Assembly: GCA_965370265.1 (NCBI GenBank)
Contig: CBDUSL010000002.1
Coordinates: 1-41,439, forward strand
DNA: 41,439 nucleotides
Reading direction: 5' to 3'
Origin: an uncultured bacterium
Lineage (GTDB): Bacteria > Patescibacteriota > Patescibacteriia > JAXHNJ01
Positions within the stretch are counted from its first letter, which is position 1, and each line of letters begins with the position of its first letter. A model generated the notes under the pieces. It was not told the DNA's origin. It saw nothing but the letters and a program-made list of their open reading frames with translations, and ran no database searches. Below are positions 1 through 38,745 of this stretch, in pieces. Both the position numbers and the translations under genes were made by a program.

Positions 1-380
1 TAAAAAAACCAAAAATATCTGTTAAAATAAATATTAAGGAAATTCAAAAACCAAATCTTAATGCCCAGATAATCTGCAATAATATGATTGAACAGATTGA
101 AAAAAGAATTCCCTTCCGTCGGGTGATGAAACAAACTATTGATGGTGTGATGAAGGCGGGAGCCAAGGGGGTTAAAGTTTCAGTGGCCGGACGTTTAAAC
201 GGAGCCGAAATTGCAAGAACAGAAAAACTGGCTACTGGCCAGCTTCCACTCCATACCTTAAGAGCTGATATAGATTATTCACGCGGCGTGGCCGCTACCA
301 CATATGGAGCTATAGGAGTTAAGGTTTGGGTTTATAAGGGTGAGGTTTTTGCTGATAAAAAAGAAGACAAAAAGATTTAA
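1..380 (+). CDS. rpsC: 30S ribosomal protein S3, C-terminal part (5' end lies upstream of the window)
   Basis: The frame is open from nt 3 to the stop at 378-380. ...KEIQKPNLNAQII..MIEQIEKRIPFRRVMKQ..GAKGVKVSVAGRLNGAEIARTE..LHTLRADIDY..GVKVWVYKGE is the conserved S3 C-terminal domain. It sits directly upstream of L16. Confidence 0.92.
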   Translation, partial: KKPKISVKINIKEIQKPNLNAQIICNNMIEQIEKRIPFRRVMKQTIDGVMKAGAKGVKVSVAGRLNGAEIARTEKLATGQLPLHTLRADIDYSRGVAATTYGAIGVKVWVYKGEVFADKKEDKKI

Positions 381-8385: not shown

Positions 8386-9489
8386 ATGGATTATCAATTT
8401 TACATTTACGCTTTTCTGGCCGCTCTTATTTTTTCCGTATTTTTTACTTTTTTAGCCAGAAAAATTGCCTTAAAAAAACAGATAGTTGACCGTCCGGAAG
8501 AAGATCTGGGCAGAAAAATTCAAACAAAAGCAATTCCTTTGCTCGGCGGTCTAGCTGTTTTTTCCGCTTTTTTCATTACTGTTCTGATATTTAAAAACCA
8601 AATTATAAGTGATTATATTTTGCCGAAATATCTCTGGGGGATTTTTATCGGCTCCTCTCTTCTTATGTTGGGCGGTTTTTTAGATGATCGCTATAAACTC
8701 AAAGCCAAGTTTCAAATTATCTGGCCTTTTTTAGCTGTTTTGGCTGCAATTGTGGTTGGGATTGGTGTTAAATATATAACCAATCCTTTTGGTGATGTTA
8801 TTTGGCTGGATAAAATTCAGTTTGATGTAATTTCCTTTGGCCAAACGGCTTATCAGATCATTCTGCTGGCCGATATTTTTGCTTTTATTTGGCTGATAGG
8901 AATGATGTATACGACTAAATTTTTAGACGGTCTAGACGGTCTTCTTTCCGGAATCACTGTTATTGGCTCGGCCGTAATCTTTTTTATGAGTCTTAGCCAG
9001 GATGTTTCCCAACCGGCCACAGCCTTAATCTGCTCAATTTTAGCCGGTTCGGCTCTCGGCTTTTTAATTTTTAACTGGCACCCGGCCAAAATATTTCTGG
9101 GGGAAGGGGGCAGTCTTTTCTGCGGCTTTATGCTTGGCATTTTAGCGATTATCTCCGGCGGAAAAATCGCCACTGCTTTATTAATAATGGGTATCCCTAT
9201 CTTGGATGTTATCTGGGTAATTATCAGGCGGCTTTTTTTACAAAAAGGGAAAGTGGCCACCGCTGACCGGAAGCATCTTCATTTTCGGCTTTTGGATGTC
9301 GGTTTTTCTCATCGGGGAGCAGTAATATTTCTATACATATTAACCATTATTTTCGGTTCAACAACCCTGTTTTTTAAAGGTTTTGAAAAACTTATCAGTC
9401 TGGTGGTGCTGGCTTTCGTTATGCTGATTTTGGGGATAGTATTAGTTTTAATGTATAAAAAAAAGAGGTCTGACTGGCAGACCTCATAG
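8386..9489 (+). CDS. glycosyltransferase family 4 (MraY/WecA superfamily), WecA/TagO-like polyprenyl-phosphate HexNAc-1-P transferase
   Basis: Multi-pass membrane protein with ..IPLLGGLAVF.., LGGFLDDRYKL, TKFLDGLDGLLSG, FLGEGGSLFCGF and ADRKHLHFRLL. It lacks the MraY-type HHHFE motif. Confidence 0.85.
   Translation: MDYQFYIYAFLAALIFSVFFTFLARKIALKKQIVDRPEEDLGRKIQTKAIPLLGGLAVFSAFFITVLIFKNQIISDYILPKYLWGIFIGSSLLMLGGFLDDRYKLKAKFQIIWPFLAVLAAIVVGIGVKYITNPFGDVIWLDKIQFDVISFGQTAYQIILLADIFAFIWLIGMMYTTKFLDGLDGLLSGITVIGSAVIFFMSLSQDVSQPATALICSILAGSALGFLIFNWHPAKIFLGEGGSLFCGFMLGILAIISGGKIATALLIMGIPILDVIWVIIRRLFLQKGKVATADRKHLHFRLLDVGFSHRGAVIFLYILTIIFGSTTLFFKGFEKLISLVVLAFVMLILGIVLVLMYKKKRSDWQTS
9457..9485 (-). 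terminator. intrinsic terminator for the minus-strand orphan transcript
   Basis: On the minus strand: GAGGTCTG-CCAGT-CAGACCTC followed by T8 (complement of the A8 at 9457-9464). It is embedded in the last codons of the + strand GT4 gene. Confidence 0.65.
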
Positions 9490-9502: not shown

Positions 9503-9784
9503 TTATCCTCTTTTCTTAAGGAGGTTCTGATGCATCATGTGAATGTTGGGAAAACTTCCCATTCCGATCTCGGTAGCCTGTTCTTCGGCCTCTTCCCGGC
9601 TGCACTGACAGGGAGCAGGAGACTTTGTTCTTCCCGAACATCCATTACCGTAGATCTGAAAGCCTCCGCACATTTCGCATATTTCCTCTTCGGTCGCAAC
9701 AATCTTACCCATATCGAGTAAGGCACTGCTTACCTTTTTGGCATTTCTATGTCTTGCCGCATGAATTCCACTTTTCGAAGACAA
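9503..9784 (-). CDS. orphan Cys-rich small protein (93 aa from TTG 9784; alternative ATG start at 9712 gives 69 aa)
   Basis: - The minus frame is open across a locally GC-richer island.
- Purine- and G-rich first codon positions, with GAA/GGA usage like the rest of the genome.
- AAAGGGGA lies 6 nt before TTG 9784.
- Own promoter and terminator.
- Cys pattern CEMCGG-x8-C-x9-CQC.
- No family recognised. Confidence 0.45.
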   Translation of the reverse strand: MSSKSGIHAARHRNAKKVSSALLDMGKIVATEEEICEMCGGFQIYGNGCSGRTKSPAPCQCSREEAEEQATEIGMGSFPNIHMMHQNLLKKRG

Positions 9785-9865
9785 TGGCGATCCCCTTTCT
9801 TGCCCAACAAGTATATACAGGAGATGTTTTTCTAAGGTGCTTTTCTGCTTAAATTGTAACAAATA

Positions 9866-9894
9866 AATATAGCTTATAAAAGAATTTTTGTCAA
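9866..9894 (-). promoter_or_regulatory. near-consensus sigma70-type promoter (minus strand)
   Basis: Minus strand: TTGACA (9894-9889), 17 nt spacer, TATATT (9871-9866). Confidence 0.6.
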
Positions 9895-9993
9895 GCCTTC
9901 GCCCCTTCGGAGCTTCGGCTTGCAGGCAAGCCTTCCCGCCTTCATTTTATTACGGCGGACAAGCTACTCCGCATTTAAGTATAATGGGCGGAG
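9892..9993. repeat. cluster of GC-rich hairpin modules (repeat family, copy A)
   Basis: - CAAGCC-TTC-GCCCC..GGAGC-TTC-GGCTTG (9892-9922).
- GGCTTG-CAGG-CAAGCC (9917-9932).
- CCGCC..GGCGG (9936-9958).
- CTCCGC..GCGGAG (9967-9993).
- The arms 9889-9902 and 9909-9922 are identical to 38151-38164 and 38180-38193. Confidence 0.6.
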
Positions 9994-10028
9994 TTTACAG
10001 GCAAGTTATTAAAAATTAAAAAATAAAT

Positions 10029-10518: not shown

Positions 10519-10549
10519 ACCTGCCTTTGCCTTTCAGGCTTCGGCAGGT
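10519..10549. repeat. GC-rich hairpin (ACCTGCC..GGCAGGT), possible family member or terminator
   Basis: 7 bp stem with loop ..CAGGCTTCGGC.., which resembles the family core. No T-run follows. Confidence 0.4.
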
Positions 10550-13555: not shown

Positions 13556-13623
13556 GGGCGCATAGTCCCGACCCGTAGGGTCGAGGATCCACGTCCCCGC
13601 TTAAGCGGGGACGGGACTCAGTT
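13556..13623 (+). pseudogene. duplicated 5' fragment of tRNA-Lys (17 nt) split by a 51-nt GC-rich palindromic insert
   Basis: - GGGCGCATAG (13556-13565) plus CTCAGTT (13617-13623) equals nt 1-17 of the intact tRNA at 13682-13698.
- The insert is 13566-13616.
- With the flanking AG/CT it forms the stem AGTCCCG..CGGGACT.
- That stem encloses ACCC-GTA-GGGT and the 20-nt palindrome GTCCCCGCTTAAGCGGGGAC. Confidence 0.55.
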
Positions 13624-13681
13624 CTTATCAAAATAAAATTGTTAGAAAAAACTATAATATTAGACGTAATATTATCTCTAC

Positions 13682-16652: not shown

Positions 16653-17238
16653 AATATTATTTTACTTAAGCATTTTTTCATTAGTGGTTTTATTTTTTAT
16701 TGAAATATTTTCTAATTATGACACCACTACCAGACAGATAGCTCTTTCTTTAACCTGTGCAGCCGTCATTATTATCCTACTTATTATCTTTAGAGTAGTT
16801 AGATCAAAGCTAAATATTGAACTGCCTTTTTATGTTGCTTGGGTGGCGGCTGTAGGAGTTTGGTTTGACGCCCTTGGCAATTTTGCCGGTCTTTATGGAA
16901 AGATTATCTGGTGGGACAAACTTTCTCATGCCGTGGGTTCCGGGGCTATGGCCATTGCCTTGTTTGTTATTTTTTACGAATTGAATAAACAAGGAAAAAT
17001 AAAACTAGGCCGTTTTAATCTTTCTCTTTACATTGTTTCTTTGACTACTTTTCTTTCGGCTGTTTATGAAGTGACAGAATATCTGGGTGACCTATGGTCT
17101 GAATCTATGAGAGTTACTGATTTATATGATACCTGTGATGATTTGATGTGGAATATTATCGCGACTGTGATTATCGTCCTAATTCTGAACATAATAAAAA
17201 AGCCCGATAATAATTTACCGGGCGCGAATAGCTCTTAA
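16633..17238 (+). CDS. multi-pass membrane protein of unknown function
   Basis: 201 aa with about 5 hydrophobic segments. It overlaps the ATPase 3' end by 20 nt. No family recognised. Confidence 0.65.
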   Translation: MSKKLNRILFYLSIFSLVVLFFIEIFSNYDTTTRQIALSLTCAAVIIILLIIFRVVRSKLNIELPFYVAWVAAVGVWFDALGNFAGLYGKIIWWDKLSHAVGSGAMAIALFVIFYELNKQGKIKLGRFNLSLYIVSLTTFLSAVYEVTEYLGDLWSESMRVTDLYDTCDDLMWNIIATVIIVLILNIIKKPDNNLPGANSS

Positions 17239-17241
17239 GGC

Positions 17242-17400
17242 CTATTTGCCAATGGCGACGTATTCTGGTCCACATTCTTTGTGGACTTTTTCGTTGGCTT
17301 CGATCAGGCTTTTGGCCCTTACGTTTGACATTTTTGGGGGATTACAGTTTTCGCAGCCACCCCTTCTTTGAACCTCAAAATCCCTCTCTTTTTCCATCAT
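17242..17400 (-). CDS. orphan small protein, 52 aa (below the ORF-track cutoff)
   Basis: Minus strand: GAGGAGGG then ATGATGGAA.. The product is MMEKERDFEVQRRGGCENCNPPKMSNVRAKSLIEANEKVHKECGPEYVAIGK, with TAG at 17244-17242. It has its own promoter. No family recognised. Confidence 0.5.
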   Translation of the reverse strand: MMEKERDFEVQRRGGCENCNPPKMSNVRAKSLIEANEKVHKECGPEYVAIGK

Positions 17401-17432
17401 CCCTCCTCGATAAAATGAACCGCTATTTCCCC

Positions 17433-17462
17433 ATTTTAGCGGAAAAACGAGGTTGATGTCAA
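17433..17462 (-). promoter_or_regulatory. near-consensus promoter for the 52-aa ORF
   Basis: Minus strand: TTGACA (17462-17457), 18 nt spacer, TAAAAT (17438-17433). Confidence 0.5.
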
Positions 17463-17474
17463 TGTAGGATATTT

Positions 17475-17503
17475 TTGACTAAACTTCAAAAAATAGTTAT
17501 AAT
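17475..17503 (+). promoter_or_regulatory. sigma70-type promoter upstream of asnS
   Basis: TTGACT (17475-17480), 17 nt spacer, TATAAT (17498-17503). Confidence 0.6.
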
Positions 17504-31287: not shown

Positions 31288-31365
31288 GCCGCCTTCGTCT
31301 AGCCCGGTCCAGGACGTATCCCTCTCACGGATGAAACACGGGTTCAAATCCCGTAGGCGGTACCA
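31288..31365 (+). tRNA. tRNA-Glu (anticodon CUC), CCA encoded
   Basis: GCCGCCT..GTCT-AGCCCGGTCCA-GGAC..TATCC-CTCTCAC-GGATG..ACGGG-TTCAAAT-CCCGT-AGGCGGT-ACCA. It closely parallels bacterial tRNA-Glu. Confidence 0.92.
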
Positions 31366-31403
31366 CGCCTTCGCCCTTCGACTTCGCTCAGGGCTACGGC
31401 GTG
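31364..31403. repeat. GC-rich repeat family copy C, abutting or overlapping the tRNA-Glu CCA end
   Basis: CACGCC-TTC-GCCC-TTCGACTTCGCTCA-GGGC-TAC-GGCGTG. It shares GCCTTCGCCC..TTCG with copy A, and TCGACTTCGCT (31378-31388) with 41194-41204. Confidence 0.5.
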
Positions 31404-31495
31404 CAAGCGTTTTAAAAGCATAAGATAAAAATTAATTTACCCCTAGCTTTAGCATAAAAGGGTGTGTGAACGTTAAATTAATAAATACCAAGTTC

Positions 31496-33290: not shown

Positions 33291-35173
33291 TGATAAATAG
33301 TAAAAAGATAATTAAGTATTTTATTTGGGGCATTACTTCTGTATTGCTCCTTTTTGGAGTGGCCGTTATTTTTATAACTCTTGTTTTAGAGCCCAACCCG
33401 AACTTAGCTCTGGAAAAATCAGGAGAAAGAACGAAAGTAAATTCGGCAATTACAATTAATTTTCTTTGGCCGGTTGACCGTGAAGCAGAAATTGAAATTT
33501 TTCCGGAAGTTTTTGGTTCTATTACTTATGAAAACAAAGTAATTAAGGACCACCTGGTCCGGACTATCAAGTTTACTCCCGAACTTAACTGGTGGCCGAA
33601 TACCCAATACACTCTTACTCTTTCTAATGTAAAAAGCGCTTTGCCTACTTTAAACAAAGCCAAAACATATTCCTTTACATTTTTAACGGAAAAGAGCCCG
33701 GAAGTTGCCTCTATTTCCCCTGATAGCGAAGAGGAAATTCTGGCTGATACATTTTTTGTGATTAATTTAGATAAAGCAAATAACAATCTTTCAAAGTATA
33801 GTTTTTCTCTTTCTCCGGCTATAGATTTTGTTACCCAGCTTAGTGAGGACAAAAAATCCTATACACTTATTCCAGATAAATCTCTTTCTCAAGGATCAGA
33901 GTATGATTTAAAGGTGATTAAAAAAGACATTCGTCTCTATTTCGGATCAGACGAAGTGGCTTTTCAAGATTCAGAAGAAAAAACATGGCAGAAAAAATTT
34001 ACAGTTAGAAAAGCCCCTTATATTGATTCGTTTTCACCGGAAGGAATAAATGTTGAGTTAACAGAAAAAATTAAGATTATTTTTAGCGAAGAGATTAAAA
34101 CAAATTCTTTTTTAGAAAAAATAACTATTAATCCGGATATCACCGGCCAATGGCAAGCAGAAGATAGTAAGACTTATATTTTTACACCAGAACAGGAAAT
34201 GACAAAAGATACTTCTTATACGGTTAGTCTTACAGAGGGAGTAAAAAGTTTAGCTGGAGGATATTTCGAAGAAGCGGCTACTTACAGTTTTTCCACCAAA
34301 GGACCGGTTAAAATGGTCAGTTCTTCTCCTTTAGCCGGAGATACGGGAATAAGTATTGATAGCCCAATTAGAATTGACTTTAATGGTACTGTCGATCATG
34401 CGTCAGCGGAAAGTAAGTTTTCTATTTCCCCTTCAAAAGAAGGCAATTTTTCCTGGGAAGGAAATACTTTAATTTTTAGGCCTTCTACCCCCTTCGACTT
34501 TAATCAAACATATACGGTTAGCCTGGAACCGGGAATAAGCTGCCCGAATAGGTATTCTTCAGAATGTGAGTATTCTTTCAGTTTTTCTACCGAACTTTCT
34601 GTAACCAGGCTAAATGTAACTTTTCATCGCCAGGAACATAGTCTTTCTTGTGAAGTGGCCACTCTGGTTATGGCCCTGTCTTATCGAGGGTTGAATATTT
34701 CAGAAGCGGAATTAATTAATTTTATCGGCTTTGATCCTACCCCTAAGGCAAACGGAGTGTGGGGAAACCCTCACATTGCCTTCGTCGGCGATATAGACGG
34801 CCACCAGCCTTCAACCGGCTATGGGGTTTATTGGCAGCCGATTGCCTCGGCTGGCAATCAGTACCGGCCAACCGGCTGGTTTACGGATGGTAATCTAGAA
34901 ATGATTACCGGCGAAATTAAAAAAGGCAACCCGGTTATTATCTGGGGAACGGCTGGTACGGGTCGAAGAATAGACTGGCTTACCGCCGAAGGCGGCAATG
35001 TAGTAGCGATTACTGGTGAGCATACTATGATTGTAACCGGTTTTATGGGTTCGGCTTCAAATCCCACTAAAATAATTGTTCTGGATCCTCTTTTTGGCGA
35101 AAAAAGTTTTACCCAGAATTCATTTTTATGGAACTGGGGGCTTTTGAATAGAAGCGGAGTAATAGTAGAGTAG
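33290..35173 (+). CDS. membrane-anchored protein: repeated SbsA/Big_5-like Ig domains plus C-terminal C39-like (papain-fold) peptidase domain
   Basis: ATG 33290 overlaps the GT4 stop (TGATG). Repeats of the type SP..G......I.I.FS..I. The C-terminus reads ..FHRQEHSLSCEVATLVMALSYRG..GVWGNP..GEHTMIVTG.. Confidence 0.82.
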   Translation: MINSKKIIKYFIWGITSVLLLFGVAVIFITLVLEPNPNLALEKSGERTKVNSAITINFLWPVDREAEIEIFPEVFGSITYENKVIKDHLVRTIKFTPELNWWPNTQYTLTLSNVKSALPTLNKAKTYSFTFLTEKSPEVASISPDSEEEILADTFFVINLDKANNNLSKYSFSLSPAIDFVTQLSEDKKSYTLIPDKSLSQGSEYDLKVIKKDIRLYFGSDEVAFQDSEEKTWQKKFTVRKAPYIDSFSPEGINVELTEKIKIIFSEEIKTNSFLEKITINPDITGQWQAEDSKTYIFTPEQEMTKDTSYTVSLTEGVKSLAGGYFEEAATYSFSTKGPVKMVSSSPLAGDTGISIDSPIRIDFNGTVDHASAESKFSISPSKEGNFSWEGNTLIFRPSTPFDFNQTYTVSLEPGISCPNRYSSECEYSFSFSTELSVTRLNVTFHRQEHSLSCEVATLVMALSYRGLNISEAELINFIGFDPTPKANGVWGNPHIAFVGDIDGHQPSTGYGVYWQPIASAGNQYRPTGWFTDGNLEMITGEIKKGNPVIIWGTAGTGRRIDWLTAEGGNVVAITGEHTMIVTGFMGSASNPTKIIVLDPLFGEKSFTQNSFLWNWGLLNRSGVIVE

Positions 35174-35175
35174 GC

Positions 35176-35204
35176 TTGACAAAAGCAGAAATTTAGGATA
35201 ACCT
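35176..35204 (+). promoter_or_regulatory. candidate promoter (GGCTTGACAAA context as in repeat copies A and B)
   Basis: TTGACA, 17 nt spacer, TAACCT. The ATG at 35214 lies about 10 nt after the -10 and has no SD. Confidence 0.35.
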
Positions 35205-35213
35205 CCCAAAGTT

Positions 35214-35981
35214 ATGAGAAGAAAAACAATTACTATATTAATAATAATCATTATCGGTTGCGGACTTTGGTTTAGCCGTCACCGGATTTTGACTGTCTGG
35301 GATTCCTGGATTGCTGAGCCTATTCCTGATGTTACGACTAAGGATGAAATAATAAAAAACGAAAATATAAATGAAAATACTAATACGGTTGTAATAGAGG
35401 AGCCGGTTATTCTGCCCGAAGAATTTAATTTGGCTGTTCCCTTTACTACTCAGTCACCTTTTGCCGAGTGGACAGAGCAGGATAATGAGTCCTGTGAAGA
35501 AGCAGCCATTTTAATTGCCCATTACTATTATCAGGATAAGACTTTTACAAAAGAGACAGCCAAACAAGAACTGCAAACCATTGTTGATTTTGAAATGGAT
35601 TATTTTGGCTTCTATAAAGATACAACGGCCGAAGAAACAGCGGAATTGGCCCGAGAAATATGGGGCTACGAAAAAGTAGAAGTAATCTATGATTTTACCA
35701 TGGAAGACATCAAGACCCATATATACCAGGGTCGACCCGTAATTTTGCCTACCGCTGGAAGAATGTTGGCCAATCCAAATTTCCGGGCGCCGGGACCTCT
35801 TTACCATATGCTGGTGGTAAAAGGCTGGAACACAGAAAATATTATTACTAATGATCCAGGCACCCGAAAAGGAGAAAATTATCAGTATTCACCTGATGTT
35901 TTGTTTGAAGCTATTCATGACTGGAATGACGGAGATCCGGCCAACGGGCAGAAAGCAATTATCGTAATTTATCCGAATTAA
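35214..35981 (+). CDS. membrane-anchored C39-like (Peptidase_C39_2 / YvpB-like) domain protein
   Basis: TM helix plus ..NENINENTNTVV.. stalk, then ..PFTTQSPFAEWTEQDNESCEEAAILIAHYY.., ..HMLVVKGW..NDPG.. Confidence 0.78.
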   Translation: MRRKTITILIIIIIGCGLWFSRHRILTVWDSWIAEPIPDVTTKDEIIKNENINENTNTVVIEEPVILPEEFNLAVPFTTQSPFAEWTEQDNESCEEAAILIAHYYYQDKTFTKETAKQELQTIVDFEMDYFGFYKDTTAEETAELAREIWGYEKVEVIYDFTMEDIKTHIYQGRPVILPTAGRMLANPNFRAPGPLYHMLVVKGWNTENIITNDPGTRKGENYQYSPDVLFEAIHDWNDGDPANGQKAIIVIYPN

Positions 35982-36063: not shown

Positions 36064-36090
36064 TTAGCACTCTAATGGTGAGAGTGCTAA
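36064..36090 (+). promoter_or_regulatory. CIRCE operator (HrcA binding site)
   Basis: Perfect TTAGCACTC-N9-GAGTGCTAA starting 4 nt after the -10. Confidence 0.92.
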
Positions 36091-37395: not shown

Positions 37396-37809
37396 ATGGC
37401 AATTATTAAATACAGTCCATTTTTACCGGAATTTGATGAGGAGTTTTTTAACCTCCCCTCTGAAATGTCTAAATTCACTCCAGCCGTAGATATTTATGAA
37501 GATAAAAATAATCTTATTGTTGAAGCTCCGTTAGCCGGTATAAATCCGGAAAAAGTAAATATAGAAATTGAAGATAACCTTCTGAAAATTTCCGGCCAGC
37601 AAGAGAAAAAAACAGAAGTTGATGAAAAGGAGTATTATCGGAAAGAAATTCGTTCAGGATCTTTTTACCGGGCTATAGCTCTGCCTAAGGCGGTAGATGG
37701 TGACAAAGCAAAGGCTGAGTTTAAAGATGGTATTCTTAAAGTTATAGTTCCTAAAAAAGAAGAGGCTAGACCTAAAAAAATTACAATTAAGGTCGAAAAA
37801 GGCGAATAA
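37396..37809 (+). CDS. Hsp20/alpha-crystallin family small heat-shock protein
   Basis: ..FTPAVDIYEDKNNLIVEAPLAGINPEKVNIEIEDNLLKISG..RSGSFYRAIALP..A.FKDGILKVIVPK. Confidence 0.93.
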   Translation: MAIIKYSPFLPEFDEEFFNLPSEMSKFTPAVDIYEDKNNLIVEAPLAGINPEKVNIEIEDNLLKISGQQEKKTEVDEKEYYRKEIRSGSFYRAIALPKAVDGDKAKAEFKDGILKVIVPKKEEARPKKITIKVEKGE

Positions 37810-37845
37810 AAAAAAGAAGCGGCTTGCAATATTGCTTACCGCTTC
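37808..37845 (-). terminator. intrinsic terminator for the minus-strand 70-aa ORF (its hairpin may also end the hsp20 transcript)
   Basis: GAAGCGG..CCGCTTC (37816-37845), with A8 on the + strand, which reads as T8 after the hairpin on the - strand. A second hairpin GTCGAG-CTAAA-CTCGAC lies at 37850-37866. Confidence 0.55.
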
Positions 37846-37865: not shown

Positions 37866-38078
37866 CTAGTTGGAACTGAGATTCCTGGGGTATGGTCCGG
37901 GTAAACGCCGGAGATTAGCGGTTACGGAGATTTCTCCCCGACCACAGCTGTCCTGAGGATGAAAGGAAATCTTTCCGTCAGAGACCCTGTCCAAAATTAA
38001 TGGACCATTCTTTTCTCCCTTCGGAGAAATATGCCAGAATCTTGTTCCGCCTCCCCAATTGACTGGACTTAATTTCAT
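37866..38078 (-). CDS. orphan small protein, 70 aa
   Basis: AAAGGAG lies 7 nt before the ATG, and the ORF has its own near-consensus promoter and terminator. It is locally GC-rich relative to its neighbours. MKLSPVNWGGGTRFWHISPKGEKNGPLILDRVSDGKISFHPQDSCGRGEISV.. No family recognised. Confidence 0.55.
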   Translation of the reverse strand: MKLSPVNWGGGTRFWHISPKGEKNGPLILDRVSDGKISFHPQDSCGRGEISVTANLRRLPGPYPRNLSSN

Positions 38079-38127
38079 CGCTTCGCTCCTTTGTCCAGTA
38101 AATGCAGAGAAGAGAAAGAGCTAAAAA

Positions 38128-38156
38128 ATATTATCATATAAATTAATATTTGTCAA
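38128..38156 (-). promoter_or_regulatory. near-consensus sigma70-type promoter (minus strand), -35 fused to repeat copy B
   Basis: Minus strand: TTGACA (38156-38151), 17 nt spacer, TAATAT (38133-38128). Confidence 0.6.
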
Positions 38157-38193
38157 GCCTTCGCTCCTCAACTTTGCTCGGAGCTTCGGCTTG
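38154..38193. repeat. GC-rich hairpin repeat, copy B
   Basis: CAAGCC-TTC-GCTCC-(12 nt loop)-GGAGC-TTC-GGCTTG. Both 14-nt arms are identical to copy A (9889-9902 and 9909-9922). Confidence 0.65.
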
Positions 38194-38255: not shown

Positions 38256-38597
38256 ATGTTTAAAAATAATTTCAACTCAAAAAATCCAGGTTTTCAGCAG
38301 ATGAAAATCGGCGGGCGATGCCCCATTTGCCAGGCGATGTATGATTTTCAGAGCCTTCAGATTTTAGGGGAAAAAGACCATTCTATTCTGGTATTTATGC
38401 AGTGTCATGTTTGCCAGGCTTCAATTGTTTCCATTCTTTCTCTGGATCCAAGAGGGATGTCTGCTCAGGGTATGGTGACCGATCTTACCCCGGAAGAAAT
38501 AATAAAAGCCGGATTTACGGAATCAGTTTCTGTTGATGATGTTCTGGAGATGCATATAGTTCTAAAAAAAGAAGAACCGGTTGATAATTTTATTTAA
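38256..38597 (+). CDS. hypothetical zinc-ribbon protein (113 aa)
   Basis: CPICQAMYDF..(22 aa)..CHVCQASIV gives a CxxC..CxxC pattern. No family recognised. Confidence 0.55.
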   Translation: MFKNNFNSKNPGFQQMKIGGRCPICQAMYDFQSLQILGEKDHSILVFMQCHVCQASIVSILSLDPRGMSAQGMVTDLTPEEIIKAGFTESVSVDDVLEMHIVLKKEEPVDNFI

Positions 38598-38599
38598 CT

Positions 38600-38745
38600 G
38601 TCACTGCGAGGCCAAAGGCCGCGGCAGTCCCGATAATATACTTATTTAGCTTTTTGTCGGGATCGCCACGTCCCCTTCGGTGCCACTCAGGCCTACGCCT
38701 GCCGAAGCAGGCTACGGCCTGCGAAGGCAGGGTCCTCGCGATGAC
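38600..38745. repeat. 146-bp GC-rich MITE-like element (copy E) with imperfect terminal inverted repeats
   Basis: - Terminal repeats: GTCACTGCGAGG (38600-38611) against CCTCGCGATGAC (38734-38745), 10/12 complementary.
- Internal modules AGTCCCGA..TCGGGA and GGATCGCCACGTCCCC are shared with the tRNA-Lys insert.
- AGGCC-TAC-GCCTGC-CGAA-GCAGGC-TAC-GGCCT.
- GCCT-GCGA-AGGC. Confidence 0.5.

Follow-up and report, generated by a model that had tools for sequence, protein, structure and literature searches.

The window analyzed here is a 41,439-nt stretch of a Patescibacteria-type contig (CBDUSL010000002.1) with a GC content of 37.5%. It carries two copies, A and B, of a GC-rich hairpin whose foot runs directly into a predicted minus-strand promoter, and behind each promoter lies a small gene unit. 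The favored explanation, with a probability of about 0.55, is that a dispersed palindromic element has been welded to an ordinary promoter and that the resulting block is reused before unrelated small genes, in antisense units inserted into operons. The genes of the window include the S10/spc ribosomal operon, secY-adk-map, and the hrcA-grpE-hsp20-dnaK operon. The readable part of the source genome consisted of the 41-kb window and a 10-kb flank (~51 kb). Loci from related genomes and metagenomes used for comparison are labeled L followed by a number.

Hairpin-promoter block in four loci

An initial annotation of the window had claimed that the foot of the hairpin supplies a minus-strand TTGACA, followed after a 17-nt spacer by TATATT in one copy and TAATAT in the other. 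This arrangement was borne out by a promoter scan, and sites A and B both combine a TTGACA-like and a TATAAT-like hexamer 16 to 18 nt apart, as in sigma-70-type promoters. Predicted promoter A (TTGACA-17-TATATT, positions 9894 to 9866, minus strand) scored 11/12 and was among the best three sites in 20 kb. Its -35 hexamer spans 9889 to 9894, with TTG as the foot of the hairpin stem, and its -10 hexamer spans 9866 to 9871. Predicted promoter B (TTGACA-17-TAATAT, 38156 to 38128, minus strand) scored 10/12 and has a TG before the -10; the hexamers are at 38151 to 38156 and 38128 to 38133. With normal -35/-10 recognition, transcription would be expected to start about 7 nt past the -10, near 9859 in unit A and near 38121 in unit B.

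The sequence GGCTTGACA occurs three times in the window (9889 to 9897 and 38151 to 38159 on the minus strand and 35173 to 35181 on the plus strand), against an expected 0.16, and none of 100 shuffles reached three. The third, hairpin-free GGCTTGACAAA that had been reported before position 35214 is indeed present on the plus strand at 35171 to 35181, with an ATG at 35214, but its -10 is weak (TAACCT, 3/6) and the site is absent from the promoter scan.

Within the hairpin family described below, only the subfamily with CAAGCC/GGCTTG arms was found fused to a promoter, in window A, window B, L076, and L063 (L063 and L071 are identical and were counted as one locus). In L076, a Global Ocean Sampling (GOS) contig, the unit lies between atpG and atpD and is antisense to both. 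Its hairpin (293 to 318) is followed by TTGACA-17-TTAAAT, a Shine-Dalgarno sequence, a Cys-rich orphan open reading frame (ORF) of 150 amino acids (aa), and a terminator. In L063/L071, from a Patescibacteria metagenome-assembled genome (MAG), the hairpin is followed by TTGACT-17-TATACT, a leaderless relB/relE-like pair, and then groES. The junction is identical in the four loci: the distance is zero, the last three bases of the stem are the TTG of the -35, and the hairpin lies upstream on its GAA strand. The orientation of the hairpin relative to the promoter is the same in all four, and A and B share their TGT flank.

The similarity extends past the -35. The 17-nt spacers have 12 positions of 17 in common between A and B and 13 of 17 between B and L076. 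Eighty-five promoter-like sites from the window served as background: 0.17% of their pairs reached 12 and 0.03% of gapped alignments reached 13, which places the spacer similarity at a P of ~1e-3 or lower. A repeat finder aligned 9861 to 9906 with 38123 to 38168 at 78% identity over 46 nt, ungapped. The cargo proteins behind the fused blocks are unrelated to each other. The shared junction and spacers indicate that the unit of conservation is the hairpin plus the whole promoter, about 65 to 75 bp and more than the -35 alone; the block shared between copies measures 57 to 66 nt.

Antisense units behind the promoters

Units A and B are both complete, each with a near-consensus predicted promoter, a Shine-Dalgarno sequence, a small ORF, and an intrinsic terminator. 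In unit A, a leader of ~75 nt is followed by AAAGGGGA-UUG and a Cys-rich ORF of 93 aa (ORF A, 9503 to 9784, minus strand). This 93-aa form is also a gene call in L006; as a mechanical ORF it measures 119 aa (9503 to 9862). The terminator (9457 to 9485, minus strand) consists of GAGGTCTGCCAGTCAGACCTC (stem 9485 to 9465) and a T8 tract and overlaps the 3' end of the plus-strand glycosyltransferase gene. In unit B, AAGGAG-7 nt-AUG opens an ORF of 70 aa (ORF B, 37866 to 38078, minus strand). Its terminator (37808 to 37845, minus strand; GAAGCGG...CCGCTTC and T8) abuts the hsp20 stop codon and is kept in L188. Both units are GC richer than their surroundings, as had been noted (45 to 48% versus 37.5% in the window).

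The two ORFs had been described as orphans, which is true of ORF A, with no homologue among 5.8 billion proteins, but not of ORF B. An exhaustive HMMER search detected a homologue of ORF B in L188 with the same length (70 aa) and 61% identity. It sits at the same place, convergent to hsp20-grpE, with 70% nucleotide identity, a 3-nt indel, and a good Shine-Dalgarno sequence. Unit B has a fold z-score of -4.1 on both strands, and two of three population single-nucleotide polymorphisms change A-U to G-U. The idea that it is a structured noncoding RNA of ~300 nt was dropped because of the L188 homologue. ORF B also shows weak matches to individual repeats in very large surface proteins of the BACON- or PKD-repeat kind (P0021-P0027; W.IS..G...G.ISVTAN...LPGPY) and may be a free-standing fragment of such a repeat.

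Both units lie antisense within conserved operons, A in the ribosomal-protein operon and B in hrcA-grpE-hsp20-dnaK. L182 and L181 lack unit A; the gap between their glycosyltransferase and DUF192 genes is 20 and 84 nt, respectively, and holds no minus-strand unit. L184, L186, and L187 lack unit B and have 100 to 230 nt between hsp20 and the gene for a 113-aa protein, versus 446 nt in the window. These sequence comparisons show units A and B as lineage-specific insertions relative to the related genomes. The sole CIRCE (controlling inverted repeat of chaperone expression) operator of the window is a perfect one at 36064 to 36090 (TTAGCACTC-N9-GAGTGCTAA), upstream of hrcA. Therefore, dnaK is presumably transcribed through unit B from the opposite direction and probably depends on read-through across this antisense unit. 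Control of copy B by CIRCE/HrcA was rejected, the only such operator being the one upstream of hrcA.

At the glycosyltransferase/DUF192 site, L183 carries a different minus-strand ORF of 85 aa with its own terminator. The promoter of this ORF aligns with that of unit A (CTTGACAAA-N-GCTATATT.AT.TGT), and no hairpin lies upstream of it. Likewise, a unit without a hairpin at 17202 to 17462 of the window (minus strand) has TTGACA-18-TAAAAT, a Shine-Dalgarno sequence, an ORF (17242 to 17400), and a terminator. The hairpin is thus not needed to supply a -35, and among these predicted promoters, promoter and hairpin are shown to be separable. The initial reading of the block as a portable promoter stands insofar as a hairpin-promoter block with the same junction and related spacers is reused before unrelated genes, but the hairpin itself is dispensable for the -35. 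No kinship was found among the cargo proteins (ORF A, ORF B, the 52-aa ORF of the 17202 to 17462 unit, the 150-aa protein of L076, and the 85-aa protein of L183), and no transposase domain was found in the cargo of the units.

The L183 promoter also bears on the improbable explanation that selfish palindromes landed independently beside existing promoters, so that the TTG overlap is meaningless and nothing is portable. Besides the same promoter hexamers without a hairpin in L183, the many nonpromoter sites of family hairpins are consistent with this explanation, as is the scarcity of harmless places for a GC-rich hairpin in AT-rich intergenic DNA. However, chance landing does not predict an identical zero-distance junction in four loci, the same orientation in 4/4, the significant spacer similarity, or the identical TGT flank in A and B. 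It is more improbable still, to the point of being the least credible of the explanations weighed, that the hairpin is a supercoiling switch in which cruciform extrusion hides the TTG of the -35 in the stem and makes the promoter supercoiling sensitive. The -35 does overlap the stem foot in all four modules, but L183 does without a hairpin, and the stem is short and interrupted (6 bp, the 3x3 mismatch, and 2 to 5 bp). With a predicted single-stranded DNA stability of -6 to -10 kcal/mol, extrusion of such a stem from duplex DNA would be unfavorable.

Several further arrangements were observed at these sites. The 17202 to 17462 unit is antisense between the DUF2238 and Asp/Asn-tRNA synthetase genes. 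It comprises GAGGAGG-AUG, a CxxC-containing 52-aa ORF, and a strong terminator, and it stands back-to-back with a plus-strand promoter (TTGACT-17-TATAAT) at 17475. In L183 (9955 to 10003), the minus-strand -35 (CTTGACAAA) overlaps a plus-strand TTGTCA-17-TAAGAT on the same bases. The DUF192 ATG follows the plus-strand -10 by 6 nt, which suggests a leaderless mRNA and a shared bidirectional -35. In the window, the -10 of the predicted plus-strand promoter of the DUF192 gene (9961 to 9995, CGGACA-18-TATAAT) falls within the loop of a 7-bp hairpin (ACTCCGC...GCGGAGT); this promoter is inside a block missing from L183.

Sequence and fold of the hairpin copies

Copy A spans 9892 to 9922 (CAAGCC/TTC/GCCCC-loop-GGAGC/TTC/GGCTTG) and copy B spans 38154 to 38193 (CAAGCC/TTC/GCTCC-12 nt-GGAGC/TTC/GGCTTG). 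A covariance model, R1, was built for the hairpin family and run on the window and the comparison loci; copy A scored 28.8 bits (E 1.7e-05), and copy B was recognized by folding and by R1. The two 14-mers previously reported as shared are exact in both copies, TGTCAAGCCTTCGC at 9889 to 9902 and 38151 to 38164 and GGAGCTTCGGCTTG at 9909 to 9922 and 38180 to 38193, and neither has a further exact copy in the window. Each hairpin consists of a basal stem of 6 bp, a 3x3 internal loop, and an upper stem GC(C/T)CC/GGAGC, with fold z-scores of -2.0 to -4.5. The internal loop of TTC opposite TTC holds in both copies, as had been proposed. The copies were also said to differ only in the apical loop. 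The loops do differ (9 versus 12 nt, and 3 to 18 nt elsewhere in the family), but so does one upper-stem base, C at 9903 versus T at 38165. With C in copy A, the plus strand has C.A at this pair and the minus strand has G.U. An alternative hairpin suggested for copy A, in which GGCTTG (9917 to 9922) pairs with a third arm, CAAGCC (9927 to 9932), competes in the plus-strand ensemble. This arm is followed by a degenerate second hairpin with the same architecture (CCGCC/TTC/AT-TTT-AT/TAC/GGCGG), and the two together span 9927 to 9960.

On the minus strand, copy A is the GAA.GAA version of the hairpin, and the GAA strand is the strand of units A and B. It folds 3 to 4.5 kcal/mol better than the TTC strand as RNA and 1.3 to 1.6 kcal/mol better as DNA. 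A C-G pair closes its apical loops, which read UUCG, CUUG, or UACG.

These features bear on the initial proposal of a conserved operator, in which a DNA-binding regulator would read the inverted repeat and coregulate a small regulon of orphan genes. In its favor, 14 plus 14 identical nt recur in two promoters of this genome at -35 to about -70, the territory of activators and repressors, and a GCTTGCAAGC palindrome adjoins the hairpin in L063 and L076. However, the arms are not a true palindrome. In both arms TTC lies on one and the same strand, an arrangement kept across phyla, so the duplex has no two-fold symmetry and lacks the symmetric half-sites at fixed spacing of a palindromic operator. 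The arm spacing is 19 nt in copy A and 28 nt in copy B, a difference of 9 bp, and differs more elsewhere. The same-strand TTC and the varying loop length point to selection on a folded single strand (RNA or single-stranded DNA) rather than on binding by a dimeric double-stranded-DNA-binding protein. The same architecture also occurs inside ORFs, after tRNAs, and in repeats of Bacteroidota, and we regard an operator as very unlikely.

Other identities of the hairpin were considered and rejected. Past the stem, the sequence is CAGGCAAG (A) or TAAACATT (B) on the plus strand and ACAAAAAT (A) or ACAAATAT (B) on the minus strand. Neither strand has a U-tract there, which rules out a terminator, and terminator scans do not list the hairpin. 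A known noncoding RNA or riboswitch was rejected because Rfam 15 gave no credible match: at gathering score only tRNAs were found, and nothing credible appeared at E up to 10 around both copies or in 20 related loci. An integron attC site was likewise discarded; the arms are CAAGCC/GGCTTG, the stem lacks GTTRRRY boxes, and the window holds neither an integrase nor a cassette array.

The hairpin family

The hairpin is not promoter specific and is one copy of a dispersed, structure-conserved family. In the window, R1 detected five members (E 0.26 or better) and a degenerate candidate at 9934 to 9960 (16.1 bits, E 0.065). Besides copies A and B, these are a hairpin 3' of the DUF192 gene (10519 to 10549, CCTGCC/TTT/GCC-loop-GGC/TTC/GGCAGG), one directly 3' of tRNA-Glu (31364 to 31404, CACGCC/TTC/GCCC...GGGC/TAC/GGCGTG), and one in the opposite orientation, with GAA on the plus strand, upstream of dnaK (38697 to 38732, CCTGCC/GAA/GCAGGC-UACG-GCCUGC/GAA/GGCAGG). 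None of these three hairpins, nor the 9934 to 9960 candidate, has a promoter at its foot. The search for further copies that had been proposed with the initial annotation thus recovered the same junction in L076 and L063, but the other family members in the window lack a promoter in that position.

Beyond the window, an arm scan (CAAGCCTTCGC-N3-30-GCTTCGGCTTG) of one genome per species and of Joint Genome Institute (JGI) metagenomes returned 56 and 113 DNA stretches, respectively. The returns include chance matches in coding regions of GC-rich genomes, which were set apart from the groups described here. Because the scan pattern forces the arms, hairpins not forced by it were also counted. The 1.1 Mb of fetched loci yielded 203 of these with a 3x3 loop; TTC/TTC plus GAA/GAA was the top class, with 13, and four shuffles gave 0 to 1. 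Nearly all of the 13 read TTC-GC-N4-GC-TTC, on nine different basal stems. In an alignment of 11 members, the basal stem covaried, with changes on both sides in five of six pairs.

The scan matches include multicopy repeats of Bacteroidota (..atgtactcatcccc-HAIRPIN-caaagcc..), spacers of tRNA operons (L045, L047, L118, and L171), and contigs of Patescibacteria and Saccharibacteria. In four low-GC MAG contigs (L052, L081, L122, and L175), the CAAGCC hairpin begins right at the 3' terminus of a tRNA-Met gene, and the upper stem shows compensatory changes between contigs. In-frame copies, reminiscent of the behavior of a mobile element, were found inside coding sequences: in AspRS of L015 (QAEALAKAW, a 27-nt insert with no TTGACA), at the N terminus of GrpE in L184 (SFAKASE, five extra residues relative to four orthologues), and inside an ORF of L186. 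A weaker R1 match lies in the N-terminal coding region of atpD in L076 (220 to 247, 19.2 bits, E 0.017; frame judged by eye). Viral contigs gave 0 matches to the hairpin, and a phage origin was rejected on this result. A literature search with strings from the CAAGCC/GGCTTG hairpin returned unrelated papers and primers and no description of the family.

It is conceivable, if improbable, that the family acts at the RNA level, with the hairpin working in the sense transcript of the host operon, as UUC/UUC upstream of the DUF192 gene, the 113-aa gene, or atpD. It could be a 5' stabilizer or processing signal rescuing the downstream operon gene after insertion, or a protein-binding stem-loop on the GAA strand. 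In window A, window B, and L076, the interrupted operon has TTC on its sense strand, and the hairpin precedes the next start codon by 107, 63, and 16 nt, respectively. Members in tRNA-operon spacers and directly 3' of tRNAs are certainly transcribed, and the family has RNA-typical tetraloops and shows the G.U versus C.A asymmetry. However, the more stable GAA strand is not the operon sense strand in any of these three loci, members occur in both orientations relative to transcription, and the missing U-tract and Rfam match also speak against this explanation.

Three further observations concern members of the family. In L052, the hairpin is followed by a small gene that is GIY-YIG-like as judged by eye. 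In L036 (6257 to 6339) and L046 (1066 to 1148), of Chitinophagaceae/Sphingobacteriales, two opposed family hairpins lie between rplO and secY; their inner 20 nt are exact reverse complements, and the pair resembles a REPIN-like doublet (a hairpin formed by two repetitive extragenic palindromes). Between the 113-aa gene and dnaK of the window, a conserved structured element (38597 to 38745, GTCAYTGCGAG...CCCG..CGGGATCGCCACGTC...CTCGCGATGAC) is shared with L187 (735 to 822) and has no Rfam match; in the window, the GAA-type hairpin at 38697 to 38732 enlarges the apical stem of this element.

Proposed origin and comparison with known elements

Under the favored explanation, the hairpin would be a copy of a class of dispersed small GC-rich palindromic elements, similar in kind to repetitive extragenic palindromic (REP) sequences and miniature inverted-repeat transposable elements (MITEs). 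The family is defined by a single-strand fold with a variable basal stem, a 3x3 loop of TTC/TTC (GAA/GAA), a GC clamp, and a variable loop. In this Patescibacteria lineage, the CAAGCC/GGCTTG subfamily would have become fused base for base to a sigma-70-type promoter. The block of hairpin, -35, spacer, and -10 would then be reused before unrelated cargo, as the upstream border of self-contained small-gene units placed antisense in conserved operons. The hairpin is most likely the copied or recombined part, or a passenger, and is not what makes the promoter work. That the promoters are active, that the block spread as one unit, and that some mechanism of mobility is involved is what we infer from this anatomy.

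Several points weigh against this explanation. Promoters A and B are predictions, and there are only two copies of the module in 41 kb plus the 10-kb flank. When module B was compared with the three source metagenome assemblies, locus B alone was recovered, so in this setting the module is not one of high copy number. The material searched yielded no transposase, no target-site duplication, and no pair of empty and filled sites resolved to the nucleotide. The L188 contig ends 19 nt before ORF B and cuts off the promoter-proximal end of the unit. The identity between A and B (78% over 46 nt) falls just short of the published definition of a putative mobile promoter, which asks for 80% identity or more across 50 nt or more in front of nonhomologous genes (PMC3575422). 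Finally, the exact arm identity across phyla was partly forced by the search pattern. A GCTTG target-site duplication was considered and dropped: L045, L063, and L076 have it, A and B have an imperfect form, and members with other basal stems lack it. Going further, the hairpins might be undescribed mini mobile elements of Patescibacteria and Bacteroidota, mobilized as single-stranded DNA and landing in frame, of which one lineage acquired an outward promoter heading antisense cassettes. This extension is unlikely, if less so than the alternatives weighed above.

Among known systems, putative mobile promoters also place highly similar upstream sequences before nonhomologous genes, within and across genomes (PMC3575422); unlike them, the reused block here has a recognizable structured repeat at its upstream edge. 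Correia repeat enclosed elements (CREE) of Neisseria are ~100 to 150 bp long, with 26-bp terminal inverted repeats, a TA duplication, a site for integration host factor (IHF), and hundreds of copies (PMC2649163; Siddique et al. 2011, cited in PMC3575422). As in CREE and promoter-bearing MITEs, a small noncoding inverted-repeat element supplies a sigma-70-type promoter to the adjoining gene from its end (PMC2649163, PMC3575422), and some copies run into ORFs, as the same sources indicate for CREE. The element here differs in being a single hairpin of 26 to 40 nt with a conserved 3x3 mismatch, in sharing the whole promoter between copies, and in its low known copy number; it has neither terminal inverted repeats nor a TA duplication.

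The hairpin also resembles REP sequences, bacterial interspersed mosaic elements (BIMEs), and REPINs, which are mobilized by REP-associated tyrosine transposases (RAYTs). These are imperfect GC-rich palindromes of 20 to 40 nt, dispersed between genes and folding as single strands (PMC3733652, PMC3116915), and the hairpin is likewise an imperfect palindrome in this size range able to fold single stranded. REP sequences cluster at times, and 9892 to 9960 holds two hairpins. The defining REP/REPIN tag is a GTAG or CGTC tetranucleotide at one end (PMC3733652). No GTAG, CTAC, CGTC, or GACG was found at the stem ends on either strand, where the flanks read TTTGT|CAAGCC...GGCTTG|CAGG in A and |TAAA in B, and no RAYT or transposase gene is among the called genes of the 51 kb. 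Unlike REP sequences, the hairpins also occur between divergent genes and in frame in ORFs, and the TTC/TTC mismatch is shared across phyla.

As with the hybrid promoters formed at the ends of insertion sequences, a -35 at the edge of the repeat faces outward, with a resident or attached -10 at 17 nt (PMC9330008). In contrast to insertion sequences, no transposase gene or insertion sequence body is present here, and conservation between copies extends to the spacer and the -10. An IS200/IS605-type arrangement, with subterminal hairpins at both ends, is not seen either: at the far side, the units end in unrelated terminator hairpins, and their cargo encodes no transposase domain.

Rickettsia palindromic elements, which Ogata et al. 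reportedly described in 2000, are said to be repeats inserted in frame into protein-coding genes of an AT-rich reduced genome. GC-rich hairpin elements also occur in AT-rich mitochondrial genomes. Repetitive hairpin-forming elements are treated in PMC2800124. The family shares with both groups its GC-rich hairpins in an AT-rich reduced genome, and L015, L184, L186, and the candidate in atpD of L076 are its in-frame cases. However, the sequences are unrelated, the hairpins here are much shorter, and none of those elements is known to be tied to a promoter.

Significance for Patescibacteria

Genomes of Patescibacteria (candidate phyla radiation, CPR) are small, and promoter architecture and mobile DNA in this group are poorly described. 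A repeat-promoter block heading antisense units in ribosomal-protein, heat-shock, and ATP-synthase operons would show how these bacteria wire in genes. The arrangement would amount to built-in convergent transcription against essential operons and may matter for the regulation of dnaK or atpD. If the hairpins are mobile elements, they would offer reduced symbiont genomes a route to gain and express new small proteins. The family, with its GAA.GAA loop, its occurrence across phyla and beside tRNA genes, and its in-frame copies in ORFs, is easily searchable with model R1.

Other observations in the window

At the start of the window (84 to 380), the gene call for ribosomal protein S3 covers just its C-terminal part. 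Just upstream of position 1, L064 (9163 to 9686) has ~520 nt between rplV and the S3 fragment with no called gene, and rpsC near the start of the window could be interrupted or unusually organized. Upstream of tRNA-Lys, nested GC-rich hairpins at 13556 to 13625 (GTCCCGACCCGTAGGGTCGAGGATCCACGTCCCCGCTTAAGCGGGGACGGGAC) are another type of GC-rich structured repeat in this AT-rich genome.

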